This document shows, one piece after another, positions 1 through 37,432 of a stretch of 37,432 nt of DNA. Each line of letters opens with the position of its first letter. Within the stretch, counting starts at the first letter, position 1. Source of the stretch: a virus (taxonomy: Duplodnaviria; Heunggongvirae; Uroviricota; Caudoviricetes). Location of the stretch: the IMG/VR virus record IMGVR_UViG_2724679140_000013, one strand, 5' to 3'. Position numbers and translations under genes: made by a program. A model generated the notes under the pieces. It had not been told where the DNA came from, did not search any database, and worked only from the letters and a program-made list of their open reading frames with translations.

Positions 1-1002
1 TTACCCTCTATTGTCAAAAGGGTTCAATTCAACAGCAGCCTCTAAATGACCTGGAGCAAAATGCGCATAACGCATAGTCATTTTTATATCGCTATGCCCC
101 AGTATTTTTTGCAACACAAGAATATTTCCGCCCCGCATCATAAAATGACTGGCAAACGTGTGACGTAGCACATGAGTTAATTGCCCATCAGGAAGCTCGA
201 TCTTCGCTCTCTTAATTGCAGCGTCAAAAGCCTCATAACATGGTGAAAATAGCGCTCCTCGTTTTTTAGGAAGCATAGCCTGCAATTGAGGTGAAATCGG
301 TACAGTGCGGTTCTTCTTTCCTTTAGTTTTGACAAATGTGATTCGACCGGGCAGTACTTGAGATTGTTTTAATCCTTCTGCTTCACTCCACCGAGCACCA
401 GTCGCAAGCCCAATACGAACAACAACCCCCAAATCTTTATTCCGTGACTCATCACACGCAATCAGAAGGCGTTCAATCTCATCTACATACAGAAACGCCA
501 GTTCCTTTTCTTCCTCACGAAACTTGCGAATACCAGTCAGGGGGTTTTCACCAGACCACTCTCCAAGGCGCTTCAGTTCGGCAAAAACAGCATGTAGATA
601 TGACTGCTCACGATTAACAGTTGCTTCACTAAGTTTCTTCTTCCCCTTTGGATTCCATTCACCTGATAATCGCCGCTCCCTGTAGGTGGCAAACATATTT
701 TTATCAAATTGAGAAGCAAACGGATCACCTAACCTAGAACAAATCGCCTCGAGTTTAGCCCTTCGCTCTTCACCGGAAGACAGTGTTTTACCGTACATAT
801 CAAACCAGCGAGCAACCAACTCGGAAAGGTGGGGGCCAGAATCATCCTGAAACTCGCTCCCCAAATTACTATTCATTAAACGGCGCTCATAAGAGAGCGC
901 CTCACCCTTAGTCGCAAACTGTTTACGAATACGCTTTCCCGATGCTCCATACGGGTAACACTCGCAAAGCCATTTACCAGTAGGTAGTCTTCGAACACTC
1001 AT
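1..1002 (-). CDS. int: tyrosine recombinase / phage integrase
   Basis: 333 aa; C-terminal catalytic region with HVLRHTFAS...LGHSDIKMTMRYAH (R-H-R-Y integrase signature); ATG at 1002, stop at 1-3. Confidence 0.9.
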   Translation of the reverse strand: MSVRRLPTGKWLCECYPYGASGKRIRKQFATKGEALSYERRLMNSNLGSEFQDDSGPHLSELVARWFDMYGKTLSSGEERRAKLEAICSRLGDPFASQFDKNMFATYRERRLSGEWNPKGKKKLSEATVNREQSYLHAVFAELKRLGEWSGENPLTGIRKFREEEKELAFLYVDEIERLLIACDESRNKDLGVVVRIGLATGARWSEAEGLKQSQVLPGRITFVKTKGKKNRTVPISPQLQAMLPKKRGALFSPCYEAFDAAIKRAKIELPDGQLTHVLRHTFASHFMMRGGNILVLQKILGHSDIKMTMRYAHFAPGHLEAAVELNPFDNRG

Positions 1003-1007
1003 TCTAA

Positions 1008-1394
1008 TTAAGACTTAATCCATCCCATCATCAACATCAGAGATACCGCCGTATTAGAAACAGACTGATTTTGATATACTTTTCTATTCTTTTTTTTATC
1101 TGCGAAAGGCTCAAAGGCCATATCAAGTTGTTTAGTCAATTCCTCTGCCAACAATTTGAGGTCATCCATATTTTTAACTTGTGTAGACAATTCTGGTGTA
1201 AGTCTTCCTTGATTATAAAGTACAGCTATAAAGTCAGCCGAGGTAGCCAATTTGTTTTTATAAGATGCCTTTTGCCACTCAAGGGCGTTTGCCTTATGTA
1301 ATGTTCCACCTTCATACCATTCAGAGGCATAACCATGAGATGCAAAAACAAACAAGATATAAAAAAGGACTAATTTTAAATAATTACGCTGCAT
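1008..1394 (-). CDS. hypothetical secreted protein (N-terminal signal peptide), low-GC cargo
   Basis: 128 aa; hydrophobic N-terminus LKLVLFYILFVFASHGYA then polar mature region; AAGGA SD before ATG at 1394; AT-rich compared with phage core. Confidence 0.6.
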   Translation of the reverse strand: MQRNYLKLVLFYILFVFASHGYASEWYEGGTLHKANALEWQKASYKNKLATSADFIAVLYNQGRLTPELSTQVKNMDDLKLLAEELTKQLDMAFEPFADKKKNRKVYQNQSVSNTAVSLMLMMGWIKS

Positions 1395-1425: not shown

Positions 1426-2073
1426 TTACACAAAATAAATTAAAAATGTAATCACCATACCCAAAATGAGTCCAACAATGAACACAATCAAAAATTCTTT
1501 AGTATATTCTGTTAATAGTTCACTAATGCAGTGTCTATTTTTAATATTGCCATTGCTCTGAGATATATTTTTATTAGTCTGCTGATCTAACCACGACAAT
1601 GCAGATTGCAACTGAGAACGAGTAAGATCGTTTAAACGGCCTGTACCGAAATTGATATGGCAATATCGAAGAAGTTTTTGTCTAATTTCATTACTTTCAC
1701 TGTTGCGAAGAAGGAGGCTTACAAGTAATTTACAGGCGTCATGATCCTTGTGTCGGTCAAGCATCGCATTGAGAAAGCTAATTGCGGTTGGATACTGATT
1801 CACCGTCATCTTATCGACACTATCAACACCGATTTCAGCATGAAGTTTACGCCAAACAACAAACGATTCTTCCTTGCTGGCATCAACAATCTTGTCAACC
1901 AACAACTTCAGTTGATGTCGCTGAGCCTTAACTAATGGGCGCTCATCAGGCCTACCAGAAGGGATTGCAATATTGACTGTATGCCGATCATCATATCGCT
2001 CTATCTGAATATTCTTTTCGTGGTAATCACGCCCAGCAACGCGATTGTCTGAACCGTTTGAGTTGACCGCCAT
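1426..2073 (-). CDS. hypothetical C-terminally membrane-anchored protein, co-transcribed with repressor
   Basis: 215 aa; single C-terminal TM helix FLIVFIVGLILGMVITFLIYFV; GGAGGTGA SD 6 nt upstream of ATG at 2073, immediately after repressor stop at 2092-2094; low GC. Confidence 0.6.
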   Translation of the reverse strand: MAVNSNGSDNRVAGRDYHEKNIQIERYDDRHTVNIAIPSGRPDERPLVKAQRHQLKLLVDKIVDASKEESFVVWRKLHAEIGVDSVDKMTVNQYPTAISFLNAMLDRHKDHDACKLLVSLLLRNSESNEIRQKLLRYCHINFGTGRLNDLTRSQLQSALSWLDQQTNKNISQSNGNIKNRHCISELLTEYTKEFLIVFIVGLILGMVITFLIYFV

Positions 2074-9830: not shown

Positions 9831-10790
9831 ATGAAAATTTGTATCGATGACGGCTCCACCAACATCAAGCTGGCATGGACTGAGAACGGCGAACGCCGCA
9901 ACGCCATCAGCCCGAACAGCTTCAAGTCGGAATGGTCTGCGCCGTTCGGTGGAACGCAGCCCGCAAACTACATGCTTGATGGCGTGCGCTATGGTTTTGA
10001 TCCGGTCAGCGATCGCTTTGTCCAGACGACCGACACGCAATACCAGTACAGCGATGTGAATGTCATTGCCATTCATCACGCGCTGGTCAAATCAGGCATC
10101 ACACCACAGGAAGTGGATGTGGTTGTCACCCTGCCACTGAGCGAATATTTCGACACCAACGCACAGCCGGACATGGCCAACATCAACCGCAAAAAAGCAA
10201 ACGTCATGCGCCCGGTGGCGTACCAGAACGGAAAAGCATTCACTATCCGTAACGTACGGGTTATGCCTGAATCCATTCCGGCTGGTTTTAAAGCACTGGC
10301 TGACATGAGTCCGTTTGAATCCCTGCTGATTGTGGATTTAGGCGGAACCACGCTGGATGTGGCAAAGGTTCAGGGACAACTGGCAGGTATCAGCCAGGTG
10401 TTTTGCGATCCACACGTAGGCGTTTCCCTGATGGCCGATGCCGTACTGTCGGTGATGGCCACTAACGGTATGCGTACCAGTCACCACATCGCCAATACCA
10501 TTATCGAACATCGCCATGATGAAGCCTGGCTGCGCCAGCACATCCACAATGACGCGCATTACGCCAGCCTGATGGCGGTTATTCGTGAAAAGGAAGAAAC
10601 ACTGAAACAACGCGTGATCCGCGCGCTGGCGGGTTTTTCGGGTTACGGGCGGGTGATGGTTGTCGGTGGAGGGGCGGAGATTGTGGCACCCGCTATCCGC
10701 GAAGCCTGCGGAGTTAATGCGACTTTCATCGCGGACGGGGTGCCACAGTTTGCTCTGGTTAACGGGCTGTACGCAATGGACAAGGAGTAA
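9831..10790 (+). CDS. parM: ParM/StbA-type actin-like partition ATPase
   Basis: 319 aa; N-terminus MKICIDDGSTNIKLAW and motifs YSDVNVIAIHHAL, IVDLGGTTLD, VMVVGGGAEI closely resemble plasmid R1 ParM as I recall it. Confidence 0.85.
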   Translation: MKICIDDGSTNIKLAWTENGERRNAISPNSFKSEWSAPFGGTQPANYMLDGVRYGFDPVSDRFVQTTDTQYQYSDVNVIAIHHALVKSGITPQEVDVVVTLPLSEYFDTNAQPDMANINRKKANVMRPVAYQNGKAFTIRNVRVMPESIPAGFKALADMSPFESLLIVDLGGTTLDVAKVQGQLAGISQVFCDPHVGVSLMADAVLSVMATNGMRTSHHIANTIIEHRHDEAWLRQHIHNDAHYASLMAVIREKEETLKQRVIRALAGFSGYGRVMVVGGGAEIVAPAIREACGVNATFIADGVPQFALVNGLYAMDKE

Positions 10791-10794
10791 ACCA

Positions 10795-11109
10795 ATGACG
10801 ACACCAACCAGACGGATAAGTTTCTATCTGAAGCCAGCTGCAGTCAAGAGTGAACGGGAAGCGTGTAATTATCTCGACAGCCTGCCAGCCTCCGAACGCA
10901 GCCGCGCGCAACGCGCGGCATTTCTGGCTGGACTGGCACTCATTAAAAACGATCCTGCCTTTGCTTACTGGCTGGCTGAATGGTCAGAGGGGGAAAATAT
11001 GCCTGCCAACAATCACATATGGGGCTGGCATAACAGCGAGCCTGTTGGTTGCAAAAATCAGAATATAAGTCAAATAAAAAAGAATATTCAGGAATTTTTT
11101 CCTGAATGA
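10795..11109 (+). CDS. parR: ParR-like partition adaptor/repressor
   Basis: 104 aa from ATG at 10795 (AGGAG SD 7 nt upstream); RRISFYLKP...LDSLPASERSRAQRAAFLAGLALIKNDP resembles R1 ParR N-terminal RHH region; directly downstream of parM. Confidence 0.75.
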   Translation: MTTPTRRISFYLKPAAVKSEREACNYLDSLPASERSRAQRAAFLAGLALIKNDPAFAYWLAEWSEGENMPANNHIWGWHNSEPVGCKNQNISQIKKNIQEFFPE

Positions 11110-11113
11110 TCAC

Positions 11114-11140
11114 AAAAAGCATGGCTTTCGCCATGCTTTT
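11114..11140. terminator. intrinsic terminator after parR
   Basis: hairpin agcatggc-tttc-gccatgct flanked by A run upstream and T run downstream. Confidence 0.6.
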
Positions 11141-11429
11141 AAATATCAAATATCAGCTTCGCACTAGAAACGCCCAAGCTTTCCAGCCATACTCATGAGC
11201 ATCCAGCTTTCGACCAGAATCACCACGAACCTTACGGTATCGGCAAAACTGCCAACGAAATCCTTTCGGAGCCGGTTTTTTTACAATTGATTTCAAAGCC
11301 ATCCATAATCACCTCCTTACTGAGAATGATTTTTACCTTGATTATCTGCCTGGATTGACTAGAATCACAGTTGTACATGCAAAACATCAAGGTGATGATA
11401 TTTCTCAGACTATCATTCCTTTGTGTTGA

Positions 11430-11465
11430 AAAGCCCCTGACGGTTGGCCCCGTCAGGGGCTTAAT
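11430..11465. terminator. intrinsic terminator downstream of antitoxin gene (bidirectional potential)
   Basis: 10-bp GC-rich stem cccctgacgg / ccgtcagggg with flanking A/T runs. Confidence 0.6.
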
Positions 11466-11467
11466 AT

Positions 11468-11785
11468 TTATGCAACCTGACAGGAATGTTCTGCCGTCGC
11501 AGTAACAACCCCACCGGAATACCCAAACTTAAAATCCCACCCCAGGATGTTTAGCATGATAAACAGTCGATCAATGGTATGATTATCTAACTTACCATTA
11601 ATGATTTCGCTTACTCTTGGTTGGGTTGTTTCCAGCAATTCAGCAGCTTCTCGCTGGGTAAGACCGCGCTCCTGAATCATTTTTCGGATAATAACCATTA
11701 ATTGGGCCCGGATGTGTTTATCACTAGCTTCATTTACAGAGCTACTTGATGACGCATAAGGGTTTTTGACTACGACGAATTCCAT
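11468..11785 (-). CDS. HTH (XRE-type) antitoxin, HigA-like
   Basis: 105 aa; HTH GLTQREAAELLETTQPRVSEIINGK; directly downstream of the toxin gene. Confidence 0.75.
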   Translation of the reverse strand: MEFVVVKNPYASSSSSVNEASDKHIRAQLMVIIRKMIQERGLTQREAAELLETTQPRVSEIINGKLDNHTIDRLFIMLNILGWDFKFGYSGGVVTATAEHSCQVA

Positions 11786-11855
11786 AACTCTCCAGCCTTA
11801 ATCAGCGATGTTGCTGACATTGATTATGTTATATCAGATTTGAGATACCTGCAAG

Positions 11856-12257
11856 CTATCTTAAGCCATTTTTACGACGATACTCCACTAATTGTTTGTA
11901 TCTTGCGGCAGCTGTCTCATATTCTTTTTTTGACACACCATTTGTCTTTTTCTTAAATGTATGAAGTATGTAAACAGACTCCGCAAATTTCGCAACGTAA
12001 ATCATACGATAAGAATCACTACTCTTGATGGTTAATTGCATTGCGTAGCGACCAATCGTTTCCCGCATTGATTTTTTTTGAGCAGGTGGAACCCCCAAGG
12101 CATCATCACCATCCACTGGAAAATCGAAACTGTCGAAAGAATGAGGACAATCGCTCTGCAGTGCAACAAGCTCAAAATTTATCCTTTCTCGAACAGCTTC
12201 AGGATAACTATCAATTTGTTTCTGAATTTTATCATTCCAATATGTGATGTCTTTCAC
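11856..12257 (-). CDS. RelE/HigB-superfamily toxin (Gp49-like)
   Basis: 133 aa; C-terminal signature YRMIYVAKFAESVYILHTFKKKTNGVSKKEYETAAARYK typical of Gp49/HigB-like toxins; GTG start with GAGAGG SD. Confidence 0.75.
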   Translation of the reverse strand: MKDITYWNDKIQKQIDSYPEAVRERINFELVALQSDCPHSFDSFDFPVDGDDALGVPPAQKKSMRETIGRYAMQLTIKSSDSYRMIYVAKFAESVYILHTFKKKTNGVSKKEYETAAARYKQLVEYRRKNGLR

Positions 12258-12349
12258 TCAGAACCTCTCACCAACGTAACCGAACGAAATTATACAAAGA
12301 TCTTTTTTTCGCTTAAATACATCCACTGAACGTTGATTTTAATGCAAGA

Positions 12350-24090: not shown

Positions 24091-24691
24091 TTCACTGTTA
24101 CCGCCATCAGCCAGCAGTTTCATGCGTTGCGCCGAAGCTGTCGGAGCGCGCATTACAGACATCCCGGTAGACCTCAACACGCTGTGGTCACCGGACACCT
24201 GCCCGGTGCATCTGCTGCCTTATCTCGCCTGGGCATTTTCCGTTGACCGCTGGGATCGCAACTGGCCGGAAGAGACAAAGCGACAGGTGATTCGTGATGC
24301 ATGGCTGATACACCGACACAAAGGGACCATCAGCGCACTGCGAAGAGCCGTGGAGCCTCTCGGCTACCTGATTGAAGTAAAGGAGTGGTGGCAACTCAAC
24401 GAGGAGCCGGGAACATTTCGCATTGTTGTCGGAGTACTTGATCAGGGCATCACCGATGAAATGTATCAGGAACTTGAGCGCCTTATTGCGGATGCAAAAC
24501 CAGTAAGTCGCCATCTGACGGGGCTGGCGATCAGCCTGAGTGTGAACGGAAAGATTTTCGTTGGTACGGGATGCTATCACGGCGATGCCCTGACGGTTTA
24601 TCCCTACACCCCGGAGTCCATTATTGTCGAAGGGGATTATTTCCCTGCCCCGGCCATTCATTTAATTGATAATCTGAGAGTAAACCCATGA
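24083..24691 (+). CDS. I: baseplate/tail protein (P2 gpI family)
   Basis: 202 aa from ATG at 24083 overlapping J stop. Confidence 0.85.
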   Translation: MSNSLLPPSASSFMRCAEAVGARITDIPVDLNTLWSPDTCPVHLLPYLAWAFSVDRWDRNWPEETKRQVIRDAWLIHRHKGTISALRRAVEPLGYLIEVKEWWQLNEEPGTFRIVVGVLDQGITDEMYQELERLIADAKPVSRHLTGLAISLSVNGKIFVGTGCYHGDALTVYPYTPESIIVEGDYFPAPAIHLIDNLRVNP

Positions 24692-26013: not shown

Positions 26014-26633
26014 TGCAAAAATATAACGTCAATATTCAGGAAGGAAAAATTGGTGAGAACGGTCTGGCCAGCGTGGCCGGATGGGTTAAGTGCTACCTTG
26101 CTAATCCTGTAACACGCGAATACATGGGGTCCACCATGGAATATGTCATGTTCGATGTGTCCCTGTCAGAAGGTGCATATCTGGATGAACCTCAGTTACC
26201 AGTAAAAGCCAGTCAGGCGGTTCGACGCACGGAAGATGGAACAGCCTGGGAAATTGTCGACGATTATCGTGGGATGGAAGCCTTTAATACACAAACCAGA
26301 GAGTCCGTAACCATTAATTTTATTGGTCCATTGCCCGAAATATTAACAATGCACAAACCCACAAGCGAATTTGACAGATGGGATGGCCATCGCTGGGTGG
26401 AGGACAAAGAAGCAGCCAGAAAAGCCAGGATTGATGCTGTCAGAAAACACAAAGCAGCGTTATCAGAAGAAGCGGAAACACGCATCGCTCAGCTTGAGCG
26501 AAAAGTTCGTCTGGAACTTGCATCAGATGAAGAAAAAGAACTGCTGAAAGCATGGGAAATCTACACAATAAAACTCGATGATATCAATCCTGAAATAACA
26601 ACGGATATTAAACTGCCGGAGAAGCCAGAATAA
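26013..26633 (+). CDS. G: tail fibre assembly chaperone (P2 gpG / Tfa family)
   Basis: 206 aa; immediately downstream of H with overlapping stop/start. Confidence 0.8.
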   Translation: MQKYNVNIQEGKIGENGLASVAGWVKCYLANPVTREYMGSTMEYVMFDVSLSEGAYLDEPQLPVKASQAVRRTEDGTAWEIVDDYRGMEAFNTQTRESVTINFIGPLPEILTMHKPTSEFDRWDGHRWVEDKEAARKARIDAVRKHKAALSEEAETRIAQLERKVRLELASDEEKELLKAWEIYTIKLDDINPEITTDIKLPEKPE

Positions 26634-26752
26634 TTAATGTTTCCGGCAATCTATCGGATAACCGGATAAAACCAGCCCCGGCAATTCCGACAGTTTCTTT
26701 TTATAAAAACTTACCGCTGTGACCAGACTGGTTATCAGCGGTTCACTTCATA

Positions 26753-27247
26753 TCAGAACAGTGCTTTAACTGAACTTGTCGTATTATTCAGGGATGCGGT
26801 CACTTTTCCCTTTAGCTCTGACACCATATCGCTGAATGAGGAGGACTGAAGGCGTTCCCGCAGATCTTCGTCGCATCGCTCCAGCGTCAGGGAAAATTCT
26901 ATTTTCTTCGCTTTCCCGTAGCGATCTAACTCAGAACGGGTCGTATTCGTTTCGGTCAGAACATACATGCCATAAATATGTCCGACACCATCAATCAGAG
27001 GCCAGGGTCGCCCTGTATACGCCTGTGTGGTCAGCAGCGACAGTGACACTTCGCCACCTGTAATTTCAGGATAAAGCACGCCGGAAAGAACGATGCGATC
27101 ATCACCTGCACCGATATACTGCCAGCTTGCAGAACGGTTAACGCGTTCATTTTTCACATGCCGCCAGCTTTTGTTTTGCTGCAACTGCTGATGCGGCAAT
27201 GTGCGCAACTCAAAAACAAACATACCGTAAATCATCATCATGACCAT
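26753..27247 (-). CDS. U: tail protein U (P2 gpU family)
   Basis: 164 aa; motifs WQYIGAGDDRIVLSGVLYPEITGG and KIEFSLTL match gpU. Confidence 0.85.
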   Translation of the reverse strand: MVMMMIYGMFVFELRTLPHQQLQQNKSWRHVKNERVNRSASWQYIGAGDDRIVLSGVLYPEITGGEVSLSLLTTQAYTGRPWPLIDGVGHIYGMYVLTETNTTRSELDRYGKAKKIEFSLTLERCDEDLRERLQSSSFSDMVSELKGKVTASLNNTTSSVKALF

Positions 27248-27253
27248 GAATCC

Positions 27254-30064
27254 TTAATCTTTATCGTAAAAACGGCCACGTCCGGCACGGTCACGTCGTT
27301 CCATTTCTGTCCTGACCATTTCACCGACCAGTTTCGCCAGTTCGCGGGGATTCTGCGTAACAACGTTATGCAGATGAACATGAATTTCACCACCAAATCC
27401 GGAGGCAACAGGCTCCCGGTTACGGGGAGGAGCAGGAACAGATGCCACTGGCGATCGTATGGCCTCCGCCACCGGGCGGGAGCTGGCAGCAACAACAGGG
27501 ACCAGCGCCGGAGGCAGCGGAGCCGGGACCACGGGTGTGATATTGATTGCGGGGGCAGGCTTACTGACCTGCGCAATCTTCCGCTCCTGCCACTCCCCAC
27601 GAACGGCAAGTGCGCGTGGCAGGTTCTTAAAGACAATATCGCCGGGGCCAATGCGTTTTTTCGTCTCATCAACCAGCTTACCTGTGTTATCAGCAATTTT
27701 GCTGAGTCTGCGTTGCGTACCGGTATTGCTGTCTGTGAGCGGTTTGTTGTCTTTGGGTTTATCGCCTCCGGTGCCATTTTCCGCTGGCTTCGGCGGATTG
27801 ATTTTCGCCAGATCCCCCTGAAGCAAGGCAACCTTATCCTGAAGAATGGCCGCACGCTGTGCGTCTTCGATTTTCTTTCTCGCCCTTTCCGCTTCATCCG
27901 GAAGCACACCGAGCTTTTCAAGTATCCACGCCAGCGTATCCAGCAGCATTTTTGCAGGCGTCAGAACAAGCTGTAGCGCACCACCAAGAACGTTACCAAA
28001 TACCTCGCCAGCACTGGTGCACTTATCCAGTGTTTCCTTGCTGGACTCCATCGGTGACAGCAGCGATTTAAACCAGTTAAACACCTGGCTGATCCCGCTT
28101 CCGATTATGTCAAAAACAGGGCCAAACCGTTCAAAGGTTTCACGCAGCGGAGCCAGCTTTTCCATAATTCCGCTGAACACCCCGGCAAAAAATGCCTTAA
28201 TCGGGTCCCAGTATTTCCAGATGAGAACCGCCGCAGCCACAAGTGCAGCAGCAACCAGACCAACCGGACTGAACAGCGTCCCGAGAGCACCGCCCAGCAA
28301 AGAGACGGAACCCGTCACCATTCCCCATAGTGCAGGCAACACCCTGACAACATTCATGGAACTGGTCAGAAGAGAAAAACCAAGACGCAACGTGGCCAGC
28401 TTCCCGTAAAGCACCCCAACAACCAGCGATAACGAGCCTACGGTTGCTGTCAATGCCAGCAGCGCACCGCCTGCAATCAGCAACTGGCGCGTCAGTACCG
28501 GATGGGCCTGTGCCAGCGCCGTCACCTTTGTGACCACACGCGTGAGCCACTGTGTGACAGAACGCAGCGGCCCATCAATCAGATCACTGATGCGAATACG
28601 CAGCCCTTCCCATGCGCTGCCGAGTGATTTCAGGTCGCCGTCAAGGTTGTCGGCCATAACCTTTGCTGTACGCTCTGCCTCACCGCGCGCAGCTTCAAGC
28701 TCTTTTCTCAGTTTGGGTAAGGAACCGTTACCCGCCGCATCAACGAGCGCCATAAACGATGTGAAAGCCTCTTCTCCGGCAATGTCCTTAAAGAACGATA
28801 CCCGGTCAACTTCCCCGTATTTGCGGGTGGCTTTATAAAGGTCGGCCAGCACATTCTCCATCGGGCGCATTTTGCCGTTCGCGTCAGAGACGGCCACACC
28901 CAGTTCTTTCAAAGCATCAGCGGTTGCCTTTGGCTGTGTTACCAGACGAGCCAGGCTGGCACGCATTGCCGTCCCGGCATCACTCCCCCTGATCCCCATA
29001 TTCGCCAGCACACCCGCCATTGCTGCGGCCTGCTCCAGCGATATTCCCAGCTTGCCCGCCACCGGACCTGCATATTTCATGGTTTCACCCAGTGCGCGAA
29101 GGTCAGTGTTGGTTCGGGTAAACGCTGCGGTGAGTGTGTCACCGACCCGGTCCATCTGGTCAGCAGAAAGGCCGAACTGCGTCAGGATATTTGAGCCAAT
29201 ATCCGCCGTCTCGCCGAGGTCCATACCGCCAGCCGTTGCCATGTTCAGCACGCCGGGAAGCGCAGCCTGAATGGCTTCTGGTGTGAAGCCAGCCATTGCC
29301 AGAAAGCTCTGTCCACTGGCGGCATCGCCTGCGGTGAACTGTGTTTCAGAGCCAAGTTTTAACGCCTGCTCACGCAGCGCCTTAAACTGCGGGCTGTTTT
29401 TGTCGATTCGCGTCAGTGCCTGAACGCGGGACATCTCTTTCCCGAACCCGATGGCAGGCTGTAAAAAACGCCCGGCAGCATAGCCGCCAGCCGCTGCCGC
29501 GCCAATTGCCAGCGCACCACCCGTTTTCAGTTTTCCCGCTGTTTCCTGCGCGCGCGAATACCGCTCACGCGCCCGTGTTACACGCGCAAGCGCCTGCCGT
29601 TCGCGTTCAAGCTGGTTGTTGTATTGTTCGGTGCGTCTGATGGCCTGCTGGATGGTGTTATCGCTACCTGTCAGGGAAATGCCGTGGCGTTTCAGCTCTC
29701 CGCCAAGTTCCCGCATTTTCTGAATTTCCCGTGTGCGCGATTCGTTCAGGCGTTCAAGCCGGGTGCTTAACTGCTGCATCAGCTTTTGTTGTTTTTCGCT
29801 GAGCACTGTCCCCGAGCGTTGTAACTGTTGAAGGGCGTTAAGCTGGCGTCGTGCTTTCACGATGCCCGCATCCGCTTTACTGACAGCGTCACGGGCGCGC
29901 TCAAATGAACGCGCCTGACGCTCAAGATTTTTGATCGCCCCCTGCGTTCGCTGGATGGAGTCACCAAACTGTCCCATCAGACGGCGGGCGCTTTCGACAG
30001 GCCGGGTCAGCCTGTCAACGGCGCTGAAAGCGACCCGGATATCAAGAGTCTTCATTGTCTGCAT
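27254..30064 (-). CDS. T: tail tape measure protein (P2 gpT family)
   Basis: about 936 aa; coiled-coil N-terminus, Gly/Ala-rich TM-like middle, typical tape-measure composition; start uncertain (candidates ATG 30064, ATG 30055, GTG 30091). Confidence 0.85.
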   Translation of the reverse strand: MQTMKTLDIRVAFSAVDRLTRPVESARRLMGQFGDSIQRTQGAIKNLERQARSFERARDAVSKADAGIVKARRQLNALQQLQRSGTVLSEKQQKLMQQLSTRLERLNESRTREIQKMRELGGELKRHGISLTGSDNTIQQAIRRTEQYNNQLERERQALARVTRARERYSRAQETAGKLKTGGALAIGAAAAGGYAAGRFLQPAIGFGKEMSRVQALTRIDKNSPQFKALREQALKLGSETQFTAGDAASGQSFLAMAGFTPEAIQAALPGVLNMATAGGMDLGETADIGSNILTQFGLSADQMDRVGDTLTAAFTRTNTDLRALGETMKYAGPVAGKLGISLEQAAAMAGVLANMGIRGSDAGTAMRASLARLVTQPKATADALKELGVAVSDANGKMRPMENVLADLYKATRKYGEVDRVSFFKDIAGEEAFTSFMALVDAAGNGSLPKLRKELEAARGEAERTAKVMADNLDGDLKSLGSAWEGLRIRISDLIDGPLRSVTQWLTRVVTKVTALAQAHPVLTRQLLIAGGALLALTATVGSLSLVVGVLYGKLATLRLGFSLLTSSMNVVRVLPALWGMVTGSVSLLGGALGTLFSPVGLVAAALVAAAVLIWKYWDPIKAFFAGVFSGIMEKLAPLRETFERFGPVFDIIGSGISQVFNWFKSLLSPMESSKETLDKCTSAGEVFGNVLGGALQLVLTPAKMLLDTLAWILEKLGVLPDEAERARKKIEDAQRAAILQDKVALLQGDLAKINPPKPAENGTGGDKPKDNKPLTDSNTGTQRRLSKIADNTGKLVDETKKRIGPGDIVFKNLPRALAVRGEWQERKIAQVSKPAPAINITPVVPAPLPPALVPVVAASSRPVAEAIRSPVASVPAPPRNREPVASGFGGEIHVHLHNVVTQNPRELAKLVGEMVRTEMERRDRAGRGRFYDKD

Positions 30065-30571
30065 TCCCGCTGCGAAGTGCCGCCCGCTCACGCCAGCTAA
30101 CCACTTCGCCGGGCGTCATCATGAAGATTTCGGCGGGCGACCAGTTAAAAATAACGGCAATATCTGCCACAAAGTCTTCTATGTGCTCAAAGCACAAAAC
30201 TGTGATCAGGCTTCCGTCGCCTGTTCGTTCTTCCCGCCAGAGTCCGCACCGCTCAAAAAATTTACGGCAACCACGCATAACTGAATAAAGTCACGGGATG
30301 CCATTTTTTTGATCGTCACTTCATCCAGTCGCGGTGATGTCACGCGTGACAGCAGCGTAAACATGGATTCCGCTTTCAGATTCAGCACATCAGACAGCGA
30401 CAAATCTCGCAGAGATCCAGCCTGCTCAATAGCCCCGGTGATCTCCACAAACGTGATTTTTTCGCCGCCACGCTCAATGGGTTGGGTAAGTTTTACGCCA
30501 CGCTCACTGGTTTCTTTCACAGTATCAGCAACTACCGTGTTTTCGGTATCGATGTTTTTCGTCTCTTTCAT
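30042..30571 (-). CDS. E+E' fusion product by programmed -1 frameshift
   Basis: second ORF in -1 frame (open from 30290 to stop at 30042) overlaps E; slippery heptamer T_TTT_TTG in E frame at 30260-30254; E' C-terminus overlaps T start as in P2. Confidence 0.6.
30206..30571 (-). CDS. E: tail assembly chaperone E (P2 gpE family)
   Basis: 121 aa; AAGGAG SD; contains slippery site near 3' end. Confidence 0.75.
   Translation of the reverse strand: MKETKNIDTENTVVADTVKETSERGVKLTQPIERGGEKITFVEITGAIEQAGSLRDLSLSDVLNLKAESMFTLLSRVTSPRLDEVTIKKMASRDFIQLCVVAVNFLSGADSGGKNEQATEA
30254..30260 (-). other. -1 ribosomal frameshift slippery heptamer TTTTTTG
   Basis: minus-strand T_TTT_TTG in E reading frame; shifted frame continues KFFERCGLW... 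to 30042. Confidence 0.6.
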
Positions 30572-30625
30572 CAGGAAACTCCTTTCAGTCAGAGGCGACG
30601 CACTGCGCCGCCTGCATATTACTTA

Positions 30626-31138
30626 TCAGCCAAGCCCAAGTGCGGAACGGATGCGATCGGGCACAATGTCCTTACCGTCCTTCCGGTAAATGAAGTTCAG
30701 CAGGTCAATCTCCCACAACGGACGATCGTTAACGCTCAGCTTGTAGTAGGTGTTTTTAATGGCGTAAGTGTGCGACGTGGCTTCGCCCTGCTTGGCTTCC
30801 CCCATATCAATTTCCGTCACACGTCCGCGCATTTCGACTTCATACAGGTCGCTTTCTGCATCGGTGTAGTATTCGCCCGCAAAACGCAGCAGCGTGCCGT
30901 CAATCGTGCCGCCATACTTAAGGAACAGCTCACGAACTGCGCCCCCCATGACAAAGCTCGCATCAAGCGCGGAGTCGTCCAGACCGAGATCAATACTTAC
31001 CGCGCCCATCATGCCACCACCCCGGTAGCTGTCGGTTTTGCGCGTCAGTTTAGGCAGGGTGACAGACGTCACCTTACCCACTTCGTTTTCACCATCCACA
31101 AACAGCGTAAAAAAGCGAAGATGTTTTGGTACAGCCAT
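30626..31138 (-). CDS. FII: tail tube protein (P2 gpFII family)
   Basis: 170 aa; ATG overlaps FI stop (ATGA). Confidence 0.9.
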   Translation of the reverse strand: MAVPKHLRFFTLFVDGENEVGKVTSVTLPKLTRKTDSYRGGGMMGAVSIDLGLDDSALDASFVMGGAVRELFLKYGGTIDGTLLRFAGEYYTDAESDLYEVEMRGRVTEIDMGEAKQGEATSHTYAIKNTYYKLSVNDRPLWEIDLLNFIYRKDGKDIVPDRIRSALGLG

Positions 31139-32322
31139 CAGGCACCTCCCAGAACCGCAAATGCGGGTCCAAAGAATTCATCAGTAAACGACTGGTAAAG
31201 TTCCATGTCTTCCAGTGGAGGAGCTGGCGTATATTTGTAGCGAATACGCACCCGCCCCTGACGTAAATCCGTGGTGCCGTTATCCACCACGTCATACCAG
31301 CACGACGCCCCAATCAGTTTCCCGGCAGTAACCAGTGAATCCAGTTTTGCCCTGACGGCACTGATAACATCCTTCACATTCACGGGTGTTAATGGGCTGT
31401 CAATGGTTTCAAACTGCGCTTCCGCAATCGTGTCAGCCAGGACCTGTGCGGTACGGGTATACACCTCAAAGATGTAGGCTTTTGTTTCCGGTGTGCGGTT
31501 GCCCCAGAAGCGGAACCCGTTGCGACGAATAATGGTCGTGATTTCCTGGTTGTTGAGGCTGTTGGCATCACTGCCTTCGGCCTGCAACGACCAGAACACA
31601 TGTCTGGACATTCCCAGCACATTTTTAACCGGAACGTTGGACAGCGATTTGTGCCAGCCCTGCTCATGGTCAATGTACGCACGAAGGCCGCACGCATAGG
31701 CAGGCGCGGGGAACACTTCGTTTTTGCCACTTTTCGGGTTCCAGGCGATGAAGTCCGGCCATAAGAGCATCACCTCACGTTCGTTGAATTTCTGGCGGTA
31801 GGTAATTGCCTCAGCCATCGTGTTACAGCCGTGACATGAGGCATACACAAACGCGCGCAGTTTACCCGCAATCACGCACAGGGATTTTGTTACCGCCTCC
31901 GTGTCCAGCTCCGGCGCGGCCAGAATACGCGGACGGTATCCGATGCTTTCCTCCTGCTCTGCAACAAGCAGCGCATACATCCCCGTATAGCTGCCGTCAG
32001 ATTCAGAACCACCGATAACCAGTTGATCCTGCGTCTTACCGCCCTCTTCTTTGTGTTCAGCCACGCGAACGACGATCACCTTTGTGCTCACCTGGTCTGC
32101 GATAGCCTTAAGCGCACGATAAAGCGTCCCCGTTGTTCCGCATTTTCCCAGCACGTCATTGACGCGGGTCAGCAGTGTGGGCTTGTTCAGCGGGAACAGC
32201 TTCGCGTCCGCATCATCCGCCGTTGCCACGATACCGATAACACTGGAATCAACATCGTTAATCGCTGTTACCAGGTCGGTATTTTCCGTAACACGGGCAC
32301 CATGAAAACGAGTTTCACTCAT
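31138..32322 (-). CDS. FI: contractile tail sheath protein (P2 gpFI family)
   Basis: 394 aa; multiple conserved blocks (FPLNKP, RILAAPELDT, LRAF.Y, WPDF.AW, QGWHK.LSNV, FRFWGNRT, YTPAPPLE) match P2 FI; AAGGGG SD. Confidence 0.9.
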   Translation of the reverse strand: MSETRFHGARVTENTDLVTAINDVDSSVIGIVATADDADAKLFPLNKPTLLTRVNDVLGKCGTTGTLYRALKAIADQVSTKVIVVRVAEHKEEGGKTQDQLVIGGSESDGSYTGMYALLVAEQEESIGYRPRILAAPELDTEAVTKSLCVIAGKLRAFVYASCHGCNTMAEAITYRQKFNEREVMLLWPDFIAWNPKSGKNEVFPAPAYACGLRAYIDHEQGWHKSLSNVPVKNVLGMSRHVFWSLQAEGSDANSLNNQEITTIIRRNGFRFWGNRTPETKAYIFEVYTRTAQVLADTIAEAQFETIDSPLTPVNVKDVISAVRAKLDSLVTAGKLIGASCWYDVVDNGTTDLRQGRVRIRYKYTPAPPLEDMELYQSFTDEFFGPAFAVLGGA

Positions 32323-32479
32323 AGCTTCAGCCCCTTGTATCCGTTAAATGATTAGGCAACAATCATCACCCACCACGCGCGTAATCTCACCCCTGCGCCA
32401 TTCTCCCGCCACGGCGACAACAAAAAGCAGTAACCCCCTCCGCACGCACATGCGACCATGCCGCACAGGGAGGGAACAG
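32323..32479. promoter_or_regulatory. divergent intergenic region between FI (minus) and D (plus); expected late promoters
   Basis: 157-bp gap between divergently oriented late genes; no clear Ogr-type dyad recognised. Confidence 0.3.
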
Positions 32480-33589
32480 ATGACCGACACCACCATGCAA
32501 TTGCTCAGTCAGGGCACAGACCCTGTAAAAATGCCGGATTTTGATATTCTCGCGGAGGGTAAAACGCTGTCAGGCGTGGCAGAGCGCCTGATGAGCCTGT
32601 CACTGACCGACAACCGTGGATTTGAGGCGGACCAGCTCACCATCACGCTGGATGATGCGGATGGTCAGTTGCAGCTACCGCCACGGGGCGCGCGCCTGAC
32701 GGTTCTCATTGGCTGGAAAGGAGAACCGCTGACAGAAAAAGGCACTTACATTGTTGATGAAATCGCTCACGAAGGACCGCCGGACAGGCTGACTGTTTCA
32801 GCCAGAAGCGCAGATTTTCGGGATGAATTTAACGTTAAACGTGAGGTGTCCTGGCATGATGTGACCGTTGAGCGTGTGGTATCCGCCATCGCTCATCGGT
32901 ACGGTCTGAAACCACAAATCAGCGAAATACTGATGGATATTGAAATCGACCACGCCGACCAGACCGAAGAAAGCGACATGTCCTTCCTTACGCGCATGGC
33001 GGAAATGCTGGGCGCAATCACCACGGTAAAAAGCGGTAATCTGTTATTCATCATGCCTGGCGGTGGCGTGAACGCACAGGGCCAGCCGTTGCCCTCATTC
33101 GCCATCACACGCAGCAGTGGCGATCGCCATCAGTTCCGCATTGCTGACCGCGAAGCGTATACGGGGGTACGCGCTTACTGGCTTGATCTTAATTACGGGA
33201 AAAAGAAAAAAGTCAGCGTGAAACGCCGCAAACCGCCAAAACCCAAAAAGGAGAAAAGCAGCAGCCGTGAAGGTGATTATATGGAAGGCGCGGAAGGCAA
33301 TGTGTTTGTGTTACGCAAGACTTATCAGAACGAGCAGGCAGCAAGACGCGCAGCGGCGGCGAAGTGGCAGCAGCTACAACGCGGAGCCGCATCATTCTCC
33401 ATCACGCTGGCACGTGGACGAGCAGAACTCTACCCCGAAATGCATGGCACGGTAACAGGATTTAAAAGCGAGATTGATAATCAGGACTGGATTATTGCAA
33501 AAGCCGAGCACACCATTGATAACAGTGGTTTTACCACACAGCTTGAGCTTGAAGCAAAAATCCCGGAATGGATAGCAGAAACAGAGTGA
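32480..33589 (+). CDS. D: tail protein D (P2 gpD family, late control D)
   Basis: 369 aa from ATG at 32480 (GGGAGGG SD); typical gpD features including basic KKKKVSVKRRKPPKPKK patch. Confidence 0.85.
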   Translation: MTDTTMQLLSQGTDPVKMPDFDILAEGKTLSGVAERLMSLSLTDNRGFEADQLTITLDDADGQLQLPPRGARLTVLIGWKGEPLTEKGTYIVDEIAHEGPPDRLTVSARSADFRDEFNVKREVSWHDVTVERVVSAIAHRYGLKPQISEILMDIEIDHADQTEESDMSFLTRMAEMLGAITTVKSGNLLFIMPGGGVNAQGQPLPSFAITRSSGDRHQFRIADREAYTGVRAYWLDLNYGKKKKVSVKRRKPPKPKKEKSSSREGDYMEGAEGNVFVLRKTYQNEQAARRAAAAKWQQLQRGAASFSITLARGRAELYPEMHGTVTGFKSEIDNQDWIIAKAEHTIDNSGFTTQLELEAKIPEWIAETE

Positions 33590-33715
33590 ACAACCTCGAC
33601 GTTTTACTTAATATACAATAGCCTTCTGGACACGGTAAGGCAAGAACAAGGGTAAAAGATCCTTTACTGTCAGAGTTACAGGTTATACCTGTAAGCAAAA
33701 ACAAAGGCATATATT

Positions 33716-34474
33716 ATGTTCAGTTTATTTTCGTTAACTGCCGGAGCAAATGTGCGCTGGCATGATTTACCTGGTAAAGGTATTCCTGTTGTTTTTATTC
33801 ATGGGCTTGGCTGTTCCTCTTCTTATGAATATCCACGGGTTGTTGCAGATCCTGCATTTGGTGGACAACGAGCGATATTGATAGATCTCCCTGGATATGG
33901 ATTCAGTGATAAGCCTAAAGGATTCGATTACAGCATATCCCATCAAGCTAAAGTTGTTATTGAAGTAGTAGAAACCTTAAATCTCTCACAGTTCCATATT
34001 TATGGTCACAGTATGGGGGGAAGTATTGCGATTGAAGTGGCCAGACAACTACATGAGAGAACAAGAAAGCTTGTGGTTTCTGAGCCTAATTTTCACTCTG
34101 GTGGAGGTACCTATAGCCGTAAGATAATAGAGAAACCAGAAGCAGAGTTTATTTCGCATATATATAATGAATTACTGGAGTGTGAAACATCCCCATGGAA
34201 AGGTGAACTCCAGAATGCAGCCCCATGGGCAATATGGCGAGGAGCCAAAAGTCTGGTTGATGGAACCACTCCATCATGGAGAGATATATTCCTTAATCTG
34301 CCCTGTTCACGTACACTAATTTTTGGCGAACAATCATTGCCAGACAATGATTTCCAGCAAATAAAAGAATCTGGAATATCTGTTGCAATAGTGCCAAACG
34401 CTGGACACTCCATGTCATGGGAAAATCCATCAGCACTGGCCTCAATTTTACATACAGAATTTTATAGAAAGTAA
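33716..34474 (+). CDS. alpha/beta-fold hydrolase (esterase/lipase-like), AT-rich cargo gene
   Basis: 252 aa; nucleophile elbow GHSMGG, N-terminal HGLG oxyanion-region motif; markedly lower GC than flanking phage genes. Confidence 0.8.
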   Translation: MFSLFSLTAGANVRWHDLPGKGIPVVFIHGLGCSSSYEYPRVVADPAFGGQRAILIDLPGYGFSDKPKGFDYSISHQAKVVIEVVETLNLSQFHIYGHSMGGSIAIEVARQLHERTRKLVVSEPNFHSGGGTYSRKIIEKPEAEFISHIYNELLECETSPWKGELQNAAPWAIWRGAKSLVDGTTPSWRDIFLNLPCSRTLIFGEQSLPDNDFQQIKESGISVAIVPNAGHSMSWENPSALASILHTEFYRK

Positions 34475-34520
34475 AATAACCTATACATAGATATTGTTTC
34501 CACCAACATCATATTATCAA

Positions 34521-34553
34521 AGAGCAGGGCAAATTTACCTCCTGCTCTTTTAC
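34521..34553 (+). terminator. intrinsic terminator after hydrolase gene
   Basis: hairpin agagcagg ... cctgctct followed by TTTT. Confidence 0.55.
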
Positions 34554-34827
34554 TCAAATTAGATGATTTTATAGCACACATTTTATGAAATATTTAAAAT
34601 CTATAAACTTATAAGAACATTTTTTATCAAAACACATACATAATGAACAATCTCTTTTATCATAATTAGTAAATTATCACTTGATAATAAATGACATACT
34701 AAATATGCATCAGGGTTAATTTTTATTAATAGATAAACGTCCATGCCTCAATCTGACCTGATTGTTGATTGGCATATTCACTAGTACAATTTAAAATCAC
34801 GATAGCAGCACATTAAGGGAGGTCGCT

Positions 34828-35088
34828 ATGTTTCGTTGTCCGCTTTGTGGCGCATCTGCCCGTATCCGCACCAGTCGTCCGGAAAATGATTCAAACACCG
34901 TGCGGCAAAAGTATTACCAGTGTAACAACCTGGAATGCGGCGTATGCTTCTCAACACTGGAAGCTTTCCATAAATTCACATCAAAACACGCCTCCGGCGT
35001 TCACTCTTCAGAAGGTATCCCGTGGCATGAGCTGCCAGCTTCACACAGGGGAAACAATCAGATGAGTTTGCCTTTACCTCAGAATTAA
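34828..35088 (+). CDS. ogr: Ogr/Delta-type zinc-finger late transcription activator
   Basis: 86 aa; MFRCPLCGASARIRTSR ... YYQCNNLECGVCF (CxxC...CxxC) closely resembles P2 Ogr; AAGGGAGG SD. Confidence 0.85.
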   Translation: MFRCPLCGASARIRTSRPENDSNTVRQKYYQCNNLECGVCFSTLEAFHKFTSKHASGVHSSEGIPWHELPASHRGNNQMSLPLPQN

Positions 35089-35277
35089 CAGGCAGAATTG
35101 CCGGAGTAACAAAAAAGCGATAGATTACGTGCGGGTGCCTTTCGGCTGATGGTCGGAGGGAATACCCGAAGGCCGGATGTGGAAAGGCCCCGGAAAACAT
35201 TTCTGTTTAACCGAGGCCCTAACCCGTCAACCTAGCAAGTGATAGGTTAGCGCCTCTCCAACAAAGGAGCAAGCGCT

Positions 35278-35418
35278 ATGTCGCAAAAATCGCTTACGGC
35301 CATCACGTTCTGCGTGACGGTAATCCTCATCATCTGGATGCTGCACGGTTCGCTGTGTGAAATACGGATGAGCTTCTGGGGAGCGGAGTTTGCGGCGTTC
35401 TTACAGTGTAAGCAGTAA
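35278..35418 (+). CDS. Hok/Gef-family type I toxin-like small membrane protein
   Basis: 46 aa (below ORF-track cutoff): MSQKSLTAITFCVTVILIIWMLHGSLCEIRMSFWGAEFAAFLQCKQ; N-terminal TM helix and SLCEIR...E.AAF signature of Hok family; AAGGAG SD 9 nt upstream. Confidence 0.6.
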   Translation: MSQKSLTAITFCVTVILIIWMLHGSLCEIRMSFWGAEFAAFLQCKQ

Positions 35419-35607
35419 GGAAACCGCGACGGGGAGGCAACTCCCCGTCAATCGGTTGCCAGGGTAAGGCCGATAAGGCACCCTATCTCATAGGCATGAA
35501 TAACAACCCCACAGCGTAAAAACTGCGGGATTTCTTTTTGGGACTCTCACTAGCTAGTGAGCTGTTAACTGCACATAATGCTCGCACAACAAATCATTTA
35601 AAAGAGA

Positions 35608-35889
35608 TTACTCAGCATTCTCCTGCTTCCATTGCCGGATCATTTCATCGGTAACATCACTTTCATAACATACCACGTCATACCCTCCAGTACGGCTATA
35701 TGCACTGCGTCCACCACATCTACTACCATTCCTTGCATGATTATACGGACACGCACAATTGCCTGGATAAGATTCAATGGATTCTTTAATTATTTCTTTC
35801 TTGATCTGAGCGTCTGACTTTCCTGTTGCTGCATACCCACTAAAAGATACCAAACACAGGCAGATTGCCATTAATAAACCACATCGCAT
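35608..35889 (-). CDS. hypothetical small secreted cysteine-containing protein
   Basis: 93 aa from ATG at 35889: signal-peptide-like MRCGLLMAICLCLVSFSGYAATG then six-Cys mature region; upstream in-frame extension in ORF track unlikely. Confidence 0.5.
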   Translation of the reverse strand: MRCGLLMAICLCLVSFSGYAATGKSDAQIKKEIIKESIESYPGNCACPYNHARNGSRCGGRSAYSRTGGYDVVCYESDVTDEMIRQWKQENAE

Positions 35890-36139
35890 ACCGATACACT
35901 CTATTACTAACCAATCATAGCCCACATCATAAAATCGAGATGAGGAGTACAGCACCTTTAACAAGAAGGTGCCATCACGATAATATGCCGTGCAATTCAT
36001 CAAAAAAAAGATCTATATCAAAGAGATAGAGTTATTATCAGTGCTGCAGACATCAGCATTCGAGGCAGCAGAAAGACAGTAAATCTAACGAATTTGTCTT
36101 TTTCTCAGGATGTTCTCAGATTAAAAAAGATAGAGTAGC

Positions 36140-36260
36140 GTAGACACCTTTTGGTGGATGGTAGGAGGAAAAATGAAGTTGAGTGGGAAGATCCCAGAAA
36201 AAACTTTGGTTTAACCAAGGCCCTAGTTCAATATGCGAAATGCAGATGAGTTGCAGGAGA
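36140..36260 (+). other. second, degenerate copy of the hok-type 5' leader (no intact toxin ORF seen)
   Basis: about 70% identity by eye to 35130-35240 (shared gatggtNggagg and gaaaaacNtttNgtttaaccNaggccctag blocks) but no downstream SLCEIR-type ORF. Confidence 0.35.
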
Positions 36261-36360
36261 GTTTTGCTTCACCCTTAGAGTTTAAACAGACGTGTACTAT
36301 CATTATTTCTGCATATCGCCACACCATCGCCACTTTACCGCCATTTAACAAAATACAAAT

Positions 36361-36390
36361 ACAAAAAAACCACCCGAAGGTGGTTTCACG
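36361..36390 (-). terminator. intrinsic terminator of glyW-cysT-leuZ operon
   Basis: on minus strand hairpin aaaccacc-ttcg-ggtggttt followed by T7; 40 nt downstream of leuZ 3' end. Confidence 0.6.
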
Positions 36391-36429
36391 ACACTGCTTA
36401 TTGCTTTGATTTTATTCTTATCTTTCCCA

Positions 36430-36516
36430 TGGTACCCGGAGCGGGACTTGAACCCGCACAGCGCGAACGCCGAGGGATTTTAAATCCCTTGTGTCTACCG
36501 ATTCCACCATCCGGGC
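36430..36516 (-). tRNA. leuZ: tRNA-Leu (anticodon UAA)
   Basis: 87 nt; reverse complement reads GCCCGGATGGTGGAATCGGTAGACACAAGGGATTTAAAATCCC...GGGTACCA with anticodon loop TTTAAAA. Confidence 0.95.
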
Positions 36517-36528
36517 TCGGGAAGAAAG

Positions 36529-36602
36529 TGGAGGCGCGTTCCGGAGTCGAACCGGACTAGACGGATTTGCAATCCGCTACATAACCGCTTTGTTAACGCG
36601 CC
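36529..36602 (-). tRNA. cysT: tRNA-Cys (anticodon GCA)
   Basis: 74 nt; reverse complement GGCGCGTTAACAAAGCGGTTATGTAGCGGATTGCAAATCCGTC...CTCCA. Confidence 0.95.
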
Positions 36603-36656
36603 AAATTCTTCAGGCCTTTCAGCCAGACATCCGCTTGACGCCGATGTCTTTTAAAC

Positions 36657-36732
<76 letters not shown>

Positions 36733-36883
36733 ATTCATCAAGCAATCAGTTAATCACTTGATTTTATTATCGTCTGGCAATCAGTGCCGCCGTTCGATGC
36801 GTTGCATTCTACTTACCTGGCGCGATGAGTCAACGATATTTTTCACCACTTTTGATCGTTTGCTGAAAATTACGCCGAAACGA

Positions 36884-37432
36884 TCACTGATCAAGCAAAT
36901 CTGCACGCGCAGCGCTCAAATATTGCAACATTGACCACAGAGTCAGTACCGCAGCCACAAAGAAAAGTGCAATACCGGCGTACTCAACCCAAATGTTCGG
37001 ACGCCACAGCAGCCATGCCAACGCCACCATCTGGGCAGTGGTTTTCACTTTCCCAATCCAGGAGACGGCCACGCTACTGCGTTTACCCAACTCCGCCATC
37101 CATTCGCGTAGCGCAGAAATAATAATTTCACGGGCGATCATCGTTGCCGCCGGTAATGTCACCCACCAGCTGTGATAATGCTCGGTTACCAGCACCATGG
37201 CGATAGCCACGAGAACTTTATCTGCCACAGGGTCAAGGAAAGCACCAAACCGGGTACTCTGGTTCCAGCGGCGTGCCAGAAAACCATCGAACCAGTCAGT
37301 CACCGCCGCGACGCAGAAAATGAGCGCGGCGGCAAACGGCGACCAGGTGACAGGCAGATAAAAGACCAATACAAAGAATGGGATAAGGATGACACGGAAC
37401 AGTGTAAGCAACGTAGGGATATTAAATTGCAT
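36884..37432 (-). CDS. pgsA: CDP-diacylglycerol--glycerol-3-phosphate 3-phosphatidyltransferase
   Basis: 182 aa complete ORF starting at last codon of window; CDP-alcohol phosphotransferase motif DWFDGFLAR...[10 protein letters not shown]; 151-bp spacing to glyW matches my recollection of E. coli K-12. Confidence 0.95.

Follow-up and report, generated by a model that had tools for sequence, protein, structure and literature searches.

The right end of the P2-like prophage carried in the IMG/VR virus record IMGVR_UViG_2724679140_000013 is, with high probability, an ordinary transfer RNA (tRNA) gene attachment site lying inside the host gene leuZ, with the 1.3 kb that follow the late-gene activator gene ogr as cargo of the phage. 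The whole stretch of 37,432 nucleotides was analyzed and is called the window here. At its right end the prophage is adjoined by the host tRNA genes leuZ, cysT and glyW, and then by pgsA (Table 1). The integrase gene, int, is located at the end of the window opposite to leuZ, so the junction at leuZ is the int-distal one, as had been stated in a preliminary description of this DNA made from the sequence alone. The features listed there for the right-hand region (ogr, a Hok-like locus, a gene for a secreted Cys-containing protein, a remnant of a hok leader and the terminator of the tRNA operon) are all present. The right boundary itself had been left open, within an interval from 35090 to 36429. 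It can be resolved: it most plausibly lies to the right of that interval and within leuZ, either in the anticodon loop (36478-36484) or close to it.

The unoccupied site was examined in complete Escherichia coli genomes, using window positions 34800-37432 as the query. Matches were found in 5,425 of the 5,426 genomes, and in the great majority of these the match begins only at 36361. In K-12 and thousands of other genomes the site is uninterrupted, with the operon terminator and leuZ located directly after yecA. The K-12 sequence between yecA and leuZ reads GTTGCAGGC followed by ACAAAAAAACCACCCGAAGGTGG, the window reads AAATACAAAT followed by ACAAAAAAACCACCCGAAGGTGG, and the two part ways exactly at 36361. 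Since homology to the empty site begins only at this nucleotide, the stretch from 35090 to 36360 is not host backbone. The case that would have made 35.1-36.4 kb ordinary host DNA, for which the preliminary description had proposed a comparison with prophage-free strains, is thus excluded.

A search of the window for repeats of any piece of 36301-36520, the leuZ 3' end included, found none, in agreement with the earlier observation. The repeat is found outside it, where the preliminary description had suggested looking. In E. coli M8 there is a perfect 124-bp copy of 36361-36484 between yecA and int, followed by a 106-bp arm and then by the int stop codon; this copy corresponds to a position 107-230 bp to the left of window base 1. 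Except for a segment at window 10862-12343 that is swapped, the M8 prophage matches the window with 99.5-99.9% identity, and the nearest relatives of the window prophage, those of the mouse isolates M8, RSHH22 and SK6988, differ from it only in this segment. At one end the block of identity includes the whole intrinsic terminator and stops exactly past its U-tract; at the other it reaches 36484, where the anticodon loop of leuZ has its last nucleotide. The junction between the left attachment site (attL) and the int arm was present in 524 complete E. coli genomes, and the arm comprising the Cys gene, the hok remnant and the right attachment site (attR) was found beside leuZ in 587. At attR of the window leuZ is intact, and the displaced 3' fragment beside int was seen in M8 and in the 524 genomes.

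An exact-pattern scan of IMG/VR for the junction of the block with the int arm yielded 16 loci, two of which were of the type expected for the phage attachment site (attP). One of them, L015, whose contig name we take to be metagenomic from the IMG numbering convention, consists of window 26459-36484 (99.98% identity), then the 106-bp arm, then window 1-685 (100%). The other, L016, is a 34.9-kb contig that is about 93% identical to the window and has the same attP arrangement. In both contigs hok, the Cys gene, the hok remnant and the block are on one continuous molecule, and therefore the cargo lies inside the phage genome. As the empty sites match only from 36361 and the attP contigs include the segment, the earlier view of 35.1-36.36 kb as extra prophage cargo was borne out, and everything from ogr to 36360 is phage DNA.

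Sequence differences between copies of the block bear on the origin of its two copies and on the place of strand exchange. When 40 copies were compared, variants were confined to positions 1-65 of the block, none of which belongs to the tRNA. In the O157 strain 493/89 the yecA-side copy (attL) is identical to the K-12 empty site, and the copy beside the intact leuZ (attR) has two single-nucleotide polymorphisms (SNPs), 3A>G and 61T>G, both of which recur in attR copies of other prophage lineages. Since these phage-lineage SNPs are present at attR but not at attL, the terminator and spacer beside the intact leuZ derive from the phage; judged from these substitutions, block positions 3-61 at attR are demonstrably of phage origin. 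The restriction of the SNPs at positions 3 and 61 to attR further indicates that strand exchange took place to the right of position 61, between 36422 and 36484 in the window. We would place the crossover within the 7-nt anticodon loop, at or near 36478-36484, because phage HP1 integrates in a tRNA-Leu gene, the same loop ends the HP1 attP, and the SNPs limit the region of exchange. Integration at the tRNA 3' end or at a site farther downstream, the two alternatives considered in the preliminary description, is not supported. By topology and by the SNPs of related lysogens, leuZ in the window would owe its 5' part (36485-36516) to the host and its 3' part (36430 to about 36484) to the phage. 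The terminator had been described as that of the host; on the same grounds the terminator in the window and the 3' 55 nt of leuZ are probably the phage-supplied copy, with the host copy beside yecA.

These observations suggest the following course of integration. A P2-like phage (P88-like, Xuanwuvirus-type) with an HP1-type tyrosine integrase would use the anticodon stem-loop of leuZ as its site. Its attP would bring in a 124-bp copy of host sequence that begins at the anticodon loop, takes in the rest of the tRNA as far as its 3' end and stops where the operon terminator stops. Insertion would split leuZ yet rebuild the full gene and its terminator from phage DNA, by setting 36361-36484 beside the host 5' part, and the original host 3' half and terminator would be pushed to the yecA side, beside int and outside the window. 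The cargo brought along is made up of a hok/sok-type locus, the gene for a small, presumably secreted four-Cys protein, a decaying hok leader, and the right arm of attP, in which there are three putative arm repeats for Int. A boundary of this kind is ordinary, already-known biology, and no new mechanism is implied.

The integrase has a clear counterpart in HP1, a phage of Haemophilus influenzae (Hpunavirus, Peduoviridae). The window Int is 59-60% identical in amino acid sequence to the Int proteins of HP1, HP2 and S2 over 99% of its length, across the arm-binding, core-binding and catalytic domains, the best solved structure for the catalytic domain is the HP1 integrase 1AIH (E=5e-75), and the HVLRH...MRYAHF residues are conserved. 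The attachment sites are similar as well. In both phages the target is a tRNA-Leu(UAA) gene, the tRNA 3' half in attP ends at an identical 13-nt anticodon stem-loop, GAGGGATTTTAAA, downstream operon sequence is also included in attP, int is about 100-160 bp from the block, and repeats of the motif (A/G/C)(T/C)CGCCA are found in both arms. In the window phage the ATCGCCAC-type motif has three copies in the right arm and at least one in the left, as compared with five across the HP1 attP arms; ATCGCCAC itself is found in the int-proximal arm, some 20 bp to the left of window base 1, and occurs six times in the whole window when both strands are counted. These repeats are candidate binding sites for Int. 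There are also distinct differences. The HP1 attP includes a whole tRNA-Lys gene and its block is at least 179 bp, whereas the window block is 124 bp and includes the operon terminator; the window phage has a P88-like E. coli backbone with ogr, hok and parM that is not HP1-like; and 1.27 kb of cargo adjoins its right arm. Integration of HP1 in a tRNA-Leu gene has been described, as have the long common cores by which 186/HP1-type P2-like prophages keep the tRNA intact (PMC3448106).

Other placements of the right end were considered. The prophage could end after ogr and hok, at about 35540, with 35557-36360 being an older remnant or host-lineage DNA at leuZ, that is, a tandem decayed island. 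The resemblance of free P88-like phages to the window does break off at about 35540, classical O157:H7 has 35557-36360 without ogr or hok, the segment holds a decayed hok leader, and tandem elements are known at leuZ. However, no att-like or leuZ-like sequence was found near 35540 or elsewhere in the window, in both attP contigs the segment follows hok and precedes the identity block, and the putative Int arm repeats at 36315-36344 adjoin that block. The O157:H7 layout is accounted for by IS30 in gpD with an adjacent deletion, strain 493/89 keeps ogr and hok, and the numbers of genomes with the segment and with the integrase are similar (587 vs 524). We regard an end at 35540 as extremely improbable. 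Nor is it at all likely that the exchange took place within the terminator or the spacer of the block, or by homologous recombination anywhere in the block, rather than in the anticodon loop. Copies from the window lineage are 100% identical over the 124 bp, so that sequence alone cannot place the exchange among them, but the two attR-only SNPs of O157 493/89 put it to the right of position 61, and in lysogens of another host background the variant bases of the attL copy fall at block positions 17-60. The block also ends on the very nucleotide that closes the anticodon loop, as it does in the HP1 attP, and the Islander database counts 2,083 islands whose attP sites are centred on the anticodon (PMC4383910).

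A further possibility is that the element is a fixed defective prophage incapable of excision and that the attP contigs are assembly artefacts of the 124-bp repeat. Its relatives are indeed damaged, by IS30 in O157, by IS100 and a split int in NC_049344, and by a frameshifted replication endonuclease gene in M8, and no cultured free-phage genome with this attP was found in the phage collection, a fact that also weighs against an attachment site inside leuZ. On the other hand, full-length open reading frames (ORFs) are seen in the window for the integrase, for the replication protein of 940 aa and for the structural proteins, and attP joins were found in two lineages 7% apart. We think a defective element unlikely; even if it were one, the boundary and the identity of the cargo would be unchanged. 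Several other points count against the placement of the right end in leuZ. L015 and L016 are assemblies rather than experimental junctions, and a mis-join by the 124-bp repeat is possible in principle; it is improbable because the two diverged lineages show the same join. The left junction of the window is deduced from other lysogens, three of them 99.5% identical and a further 500-odd, its own strain not being among the complete genomes. The two repeat copies are identical in the window and M8, so the phage origin of the attR copy rests on related lineages. When 185,579 species-representative genomes were scanned twice for exact matches to the attR right-arm patterns, none was found, and the O157 SNPs served in place of a comparison of attL and attR in a second species. 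Finally, the exact cleavage positions within leuZ are presumed from the HP1 paradigm, for which a cleavage map was reportedly given by Hauser and Scocca in 1992, a study cited in 10.1101/2023.11.06.565760.

Table 1. Predicted features of the prophage ends, the cargo region and the host flank (window coordinates)
Feature	Position	Strand	Basis or remark
int, tyrosine integrase, HP1 type	1-1002	(-)	Pfam Int_N + Phage_integrase; stop codon at window base 1
ogr, late-gene activator	34828-35088	(+)	Pfam Ogr_Delta, E=5e-14; last conserved P2-type gene ahead of the cargo
hok/sok-type type I toxin-antitoxin locus	35100-35540	(+)	HOK_GEF, phrog_251, sub-threshold Rfam sok
hok coding sequence, 46-aa Hok-family peptide	35278-35418	(+)	PF01848 HOK_GEF; behind a long leader
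Terminator-like hairpin of hok locus	35505-35532		Terminator scan
Gene for 93-aa secreted protein, four invariant Cys	35608-35889	(-)	phrog_27544, E=1.5e-59
Decayed 5' leader of second hok-type locus	36122-36225	(+)	Alignment to 35110-35221; no hok ORF after it
Candidate arm-type sites ATCGCCAC, ATCGCCAC, ACCGCCAT	36315-36344	(+)	attP/attR right arm; spacing about 11 bp
attR identity block, 124 bp, prophage direct repeat	36361-36484		leuZ operon terminator + spacer + 3' 55 nt of leuZ
Terminator hairpin, glyW-cysT-leuZ operon	36366-36387	(-)	Terminator scan
tRNA-Leu(UAA), leuZ	36430-36516	(-)	ARAGORN + Rfam
Anticodon loop, 7 nt, putative crossover (overlap) segment	36478-36484		TTTTAAA on + strand; attB stem AGGGA/TCCCT inverted on flanks
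tRNA-Cys, cysT	36529-36602	(-)	
tRNA-Gly, glyW	36657-36732	(-)	

The cargo begins shortly after ogr, whose counterpart in M8 is annotated as ogr/Delta-like. Its first element is, from its family matches, an ordinary prophage hok-type locus, presumably active as such. The Hok peptide scored 30.1 bits against Pfam HOK_GEF (PF01848), for which the cutoff is 22, and matched phrog_251, 'MokW-like host killing', with E=2.5e-23; the Rfam sok model RF01794 matched at 35133-35288 with 47.3 bits, under its gathering score of 59. The second hok-type leader further to the right gave a local alignment score of 51 against the intact leader, compared with 16.4 +/- 2.4 (maximum 29) for 500 dinucleotide shuffles. 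It is the fastest-diverging segment between lineages, and with an identity of only about 82% it is therefore considered to be decaying. The idea that it is retained as an orphan sok-like antisense gene was rejected as unsupported, since no other segment is less conserved between lineages and no Rfam model matched it.

Between the two lies the gene for the small Cys protein, which has a hydrophobic, signal-like N-terminal segment as judged by eye. A total of 260 homologues were found, all of them unnamed proteins, in which C45, C47, C58 and C74 are invariant; the core motif with the invariant residues is SI..YPG.C.CPY.....G..CG.RSA.S..GG....CY. The family is spread across the Proteobacteria, with named members in E. 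coli, Salmonella, Oxalobacter and Pseudomonas. The protein belongs to no Pfam or NCBIfam family, a Foldseek search of the PDB with its AlphaFold2 model (predicted local distance difference test score, pLDDT, 76.6) gave no fold match, and tblastn against the phage collection gave no match. A match to 'Sclerostin' was sub-threshold and was disregarded. The protein is 96-99% conserved between prophage lineages, and its gene travels with the leuZ att module, adjoining attP in every lineage of the module. One speculative and rather doubtful suggestion is a lysogenic-conversion or exclusion factor acting in the periplasm, for example by binding metal or the envelope, which would explain why the arm is retained in decayed prophages such as that of O157:H7.

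The window and P2 have in common the gene order D-ogr-attP-int-repressor and the P2-type virion module. In the P2 record the 27-bp core is at 24356-24383, outside tRNA genes and about 100 bp past the ogr stop codon (24254), which agrees with the earlier remark that ogr of P2 is close to the attachment site. In the window, by contrast, the 124-bp block is located in leuZ, with 1,272 bp between its start and ogr, and the integrase is on the HP1/186 branch and not on the P2 branch. The P88-like phages P88, P88_4B11, 500465-2, Chuche and PhiR44_2 have a hok locus right after ogr that is 94-96% identical to that of the window. At about 35540 they diverge from it, and have other cargo and a different attP and int; the cargo of Chuche is com plus a DNA methyltransferase gene, unlike that of the window. 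The stretch from hok to attP is therefore a variable cargo slot in this group of phages.

The O157 prophage at leuZ, which we take to be the one named Sp13 or CP-933T, has the same site and the same arm of Cys gene, remnant and attR as the window, and its integrase is of the same lineage, with a DNA identity of about 93%. It differs in having the insertion sequence (IS) IS30 in gpD (loci L002 4485-6031 and L052 34774-37106) and the two SNPs in its attR block. In classical O157:H7 (ECP17-46) the prophage, besides having IS30, is without the DNA from D' to the equivalent of window 35557, including ogr and hok; in O157 493/89 there is a simple IS30 insertion, and ogr and hok are kept. The only close int in the phage collection is that of a mis-delimited prophage at the same site (L009; NC_049344.1, 'Escherichia phage 520873'), entered in RefSeq as a 'complete phage genome', which runs from the interior of the host yecA to the interior of hok. 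In this record the int, replication and tape-measure genes are all split, and the tail sheath gene contains IS100.

Other elements and hosts were encountered at the same site. The IMG/VR loci L014, L020, L022, L023 and L025 are attL junctions of the same integrase module with a different upstream flank, and their terminator loop is CCCGTAGG or CCCGGAGG; from this flank and loop, the phage group lysogenises other enterobacteria at leuZ too. An unrelated prophage of siphovirus or lambdoid type is found at leuZ in the opposite orientation, in L027 7925-9142 (E. coli 3385) and in the IMG/VR loci L011, L012+L049 and L018. Its identity block, equivalent to window 36359-36484, starts at most 2 nt from that of the P2-like prophage, just past the terminator U-tract. 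Tandem arrays also occur, in the order lambdoid prophage, block, P2-like prophage, block, leuZ. The leuZ gene is a listed site for prophages or integrative elements in Shiga toxin-producing E. coli O121 and O145 (PMC8767318, PMC7067040).

Accessory genes are found elsewhere in the window as well. An alpha/beta-hydrolase gene at 33716-34474 (+) lies in an insert of low G+C content (38%) between gpD and ogr, the flanks of which extend to 34800. In O157 493/89 this place is taken by a gene for a 'YecA family' protein, and L016 has no counterpart of the stretch; since the content varies in this manner, the region between D and ogr is regarded as a second cargo slot. The genes at 1008-1394 (-) and 1426-2073 (-), assigned to phrog_23065 and phrog_5825, lie in a stretch of 36% G+C between int and the repressor gene; at the first of these positions O157 has a DUF2511 gene, and the int-repressor stretch may be another accessory slot. 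A ParM-type segregation gene plus a partition gene, named through the aligned M8 annotation, are located at 9831-10790 (+), and hint that P88-like phages might also be maintained as plasmids. The swapped segment at 10862-12343 lies between these genes and the portal gene, a position that presumably corresponds to the old/tin variable hotspot of P2, known to hold defence genes.

The main value of these findings is for annotation, in that the right boundary of the prophage is placed inside leuZ, and not after ogr or at the tRNA 3' end. Prophage callers misplace this boundary, as in the RefSeq record NC_049344. About 10% of complete E. coli genomes, O157 included, carry the leuZ module, and because it is this common, correct boundaries matter for pangenome analysis and prophage typing. 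In lysogens, the terminator and the 3' half of what appears to be the host leuZ would be phage DNA. The specificity of HP1-type integrases for tRNA-Leu(UAA) is seen to be conserved between phages of Haemophilus and of E. coli.

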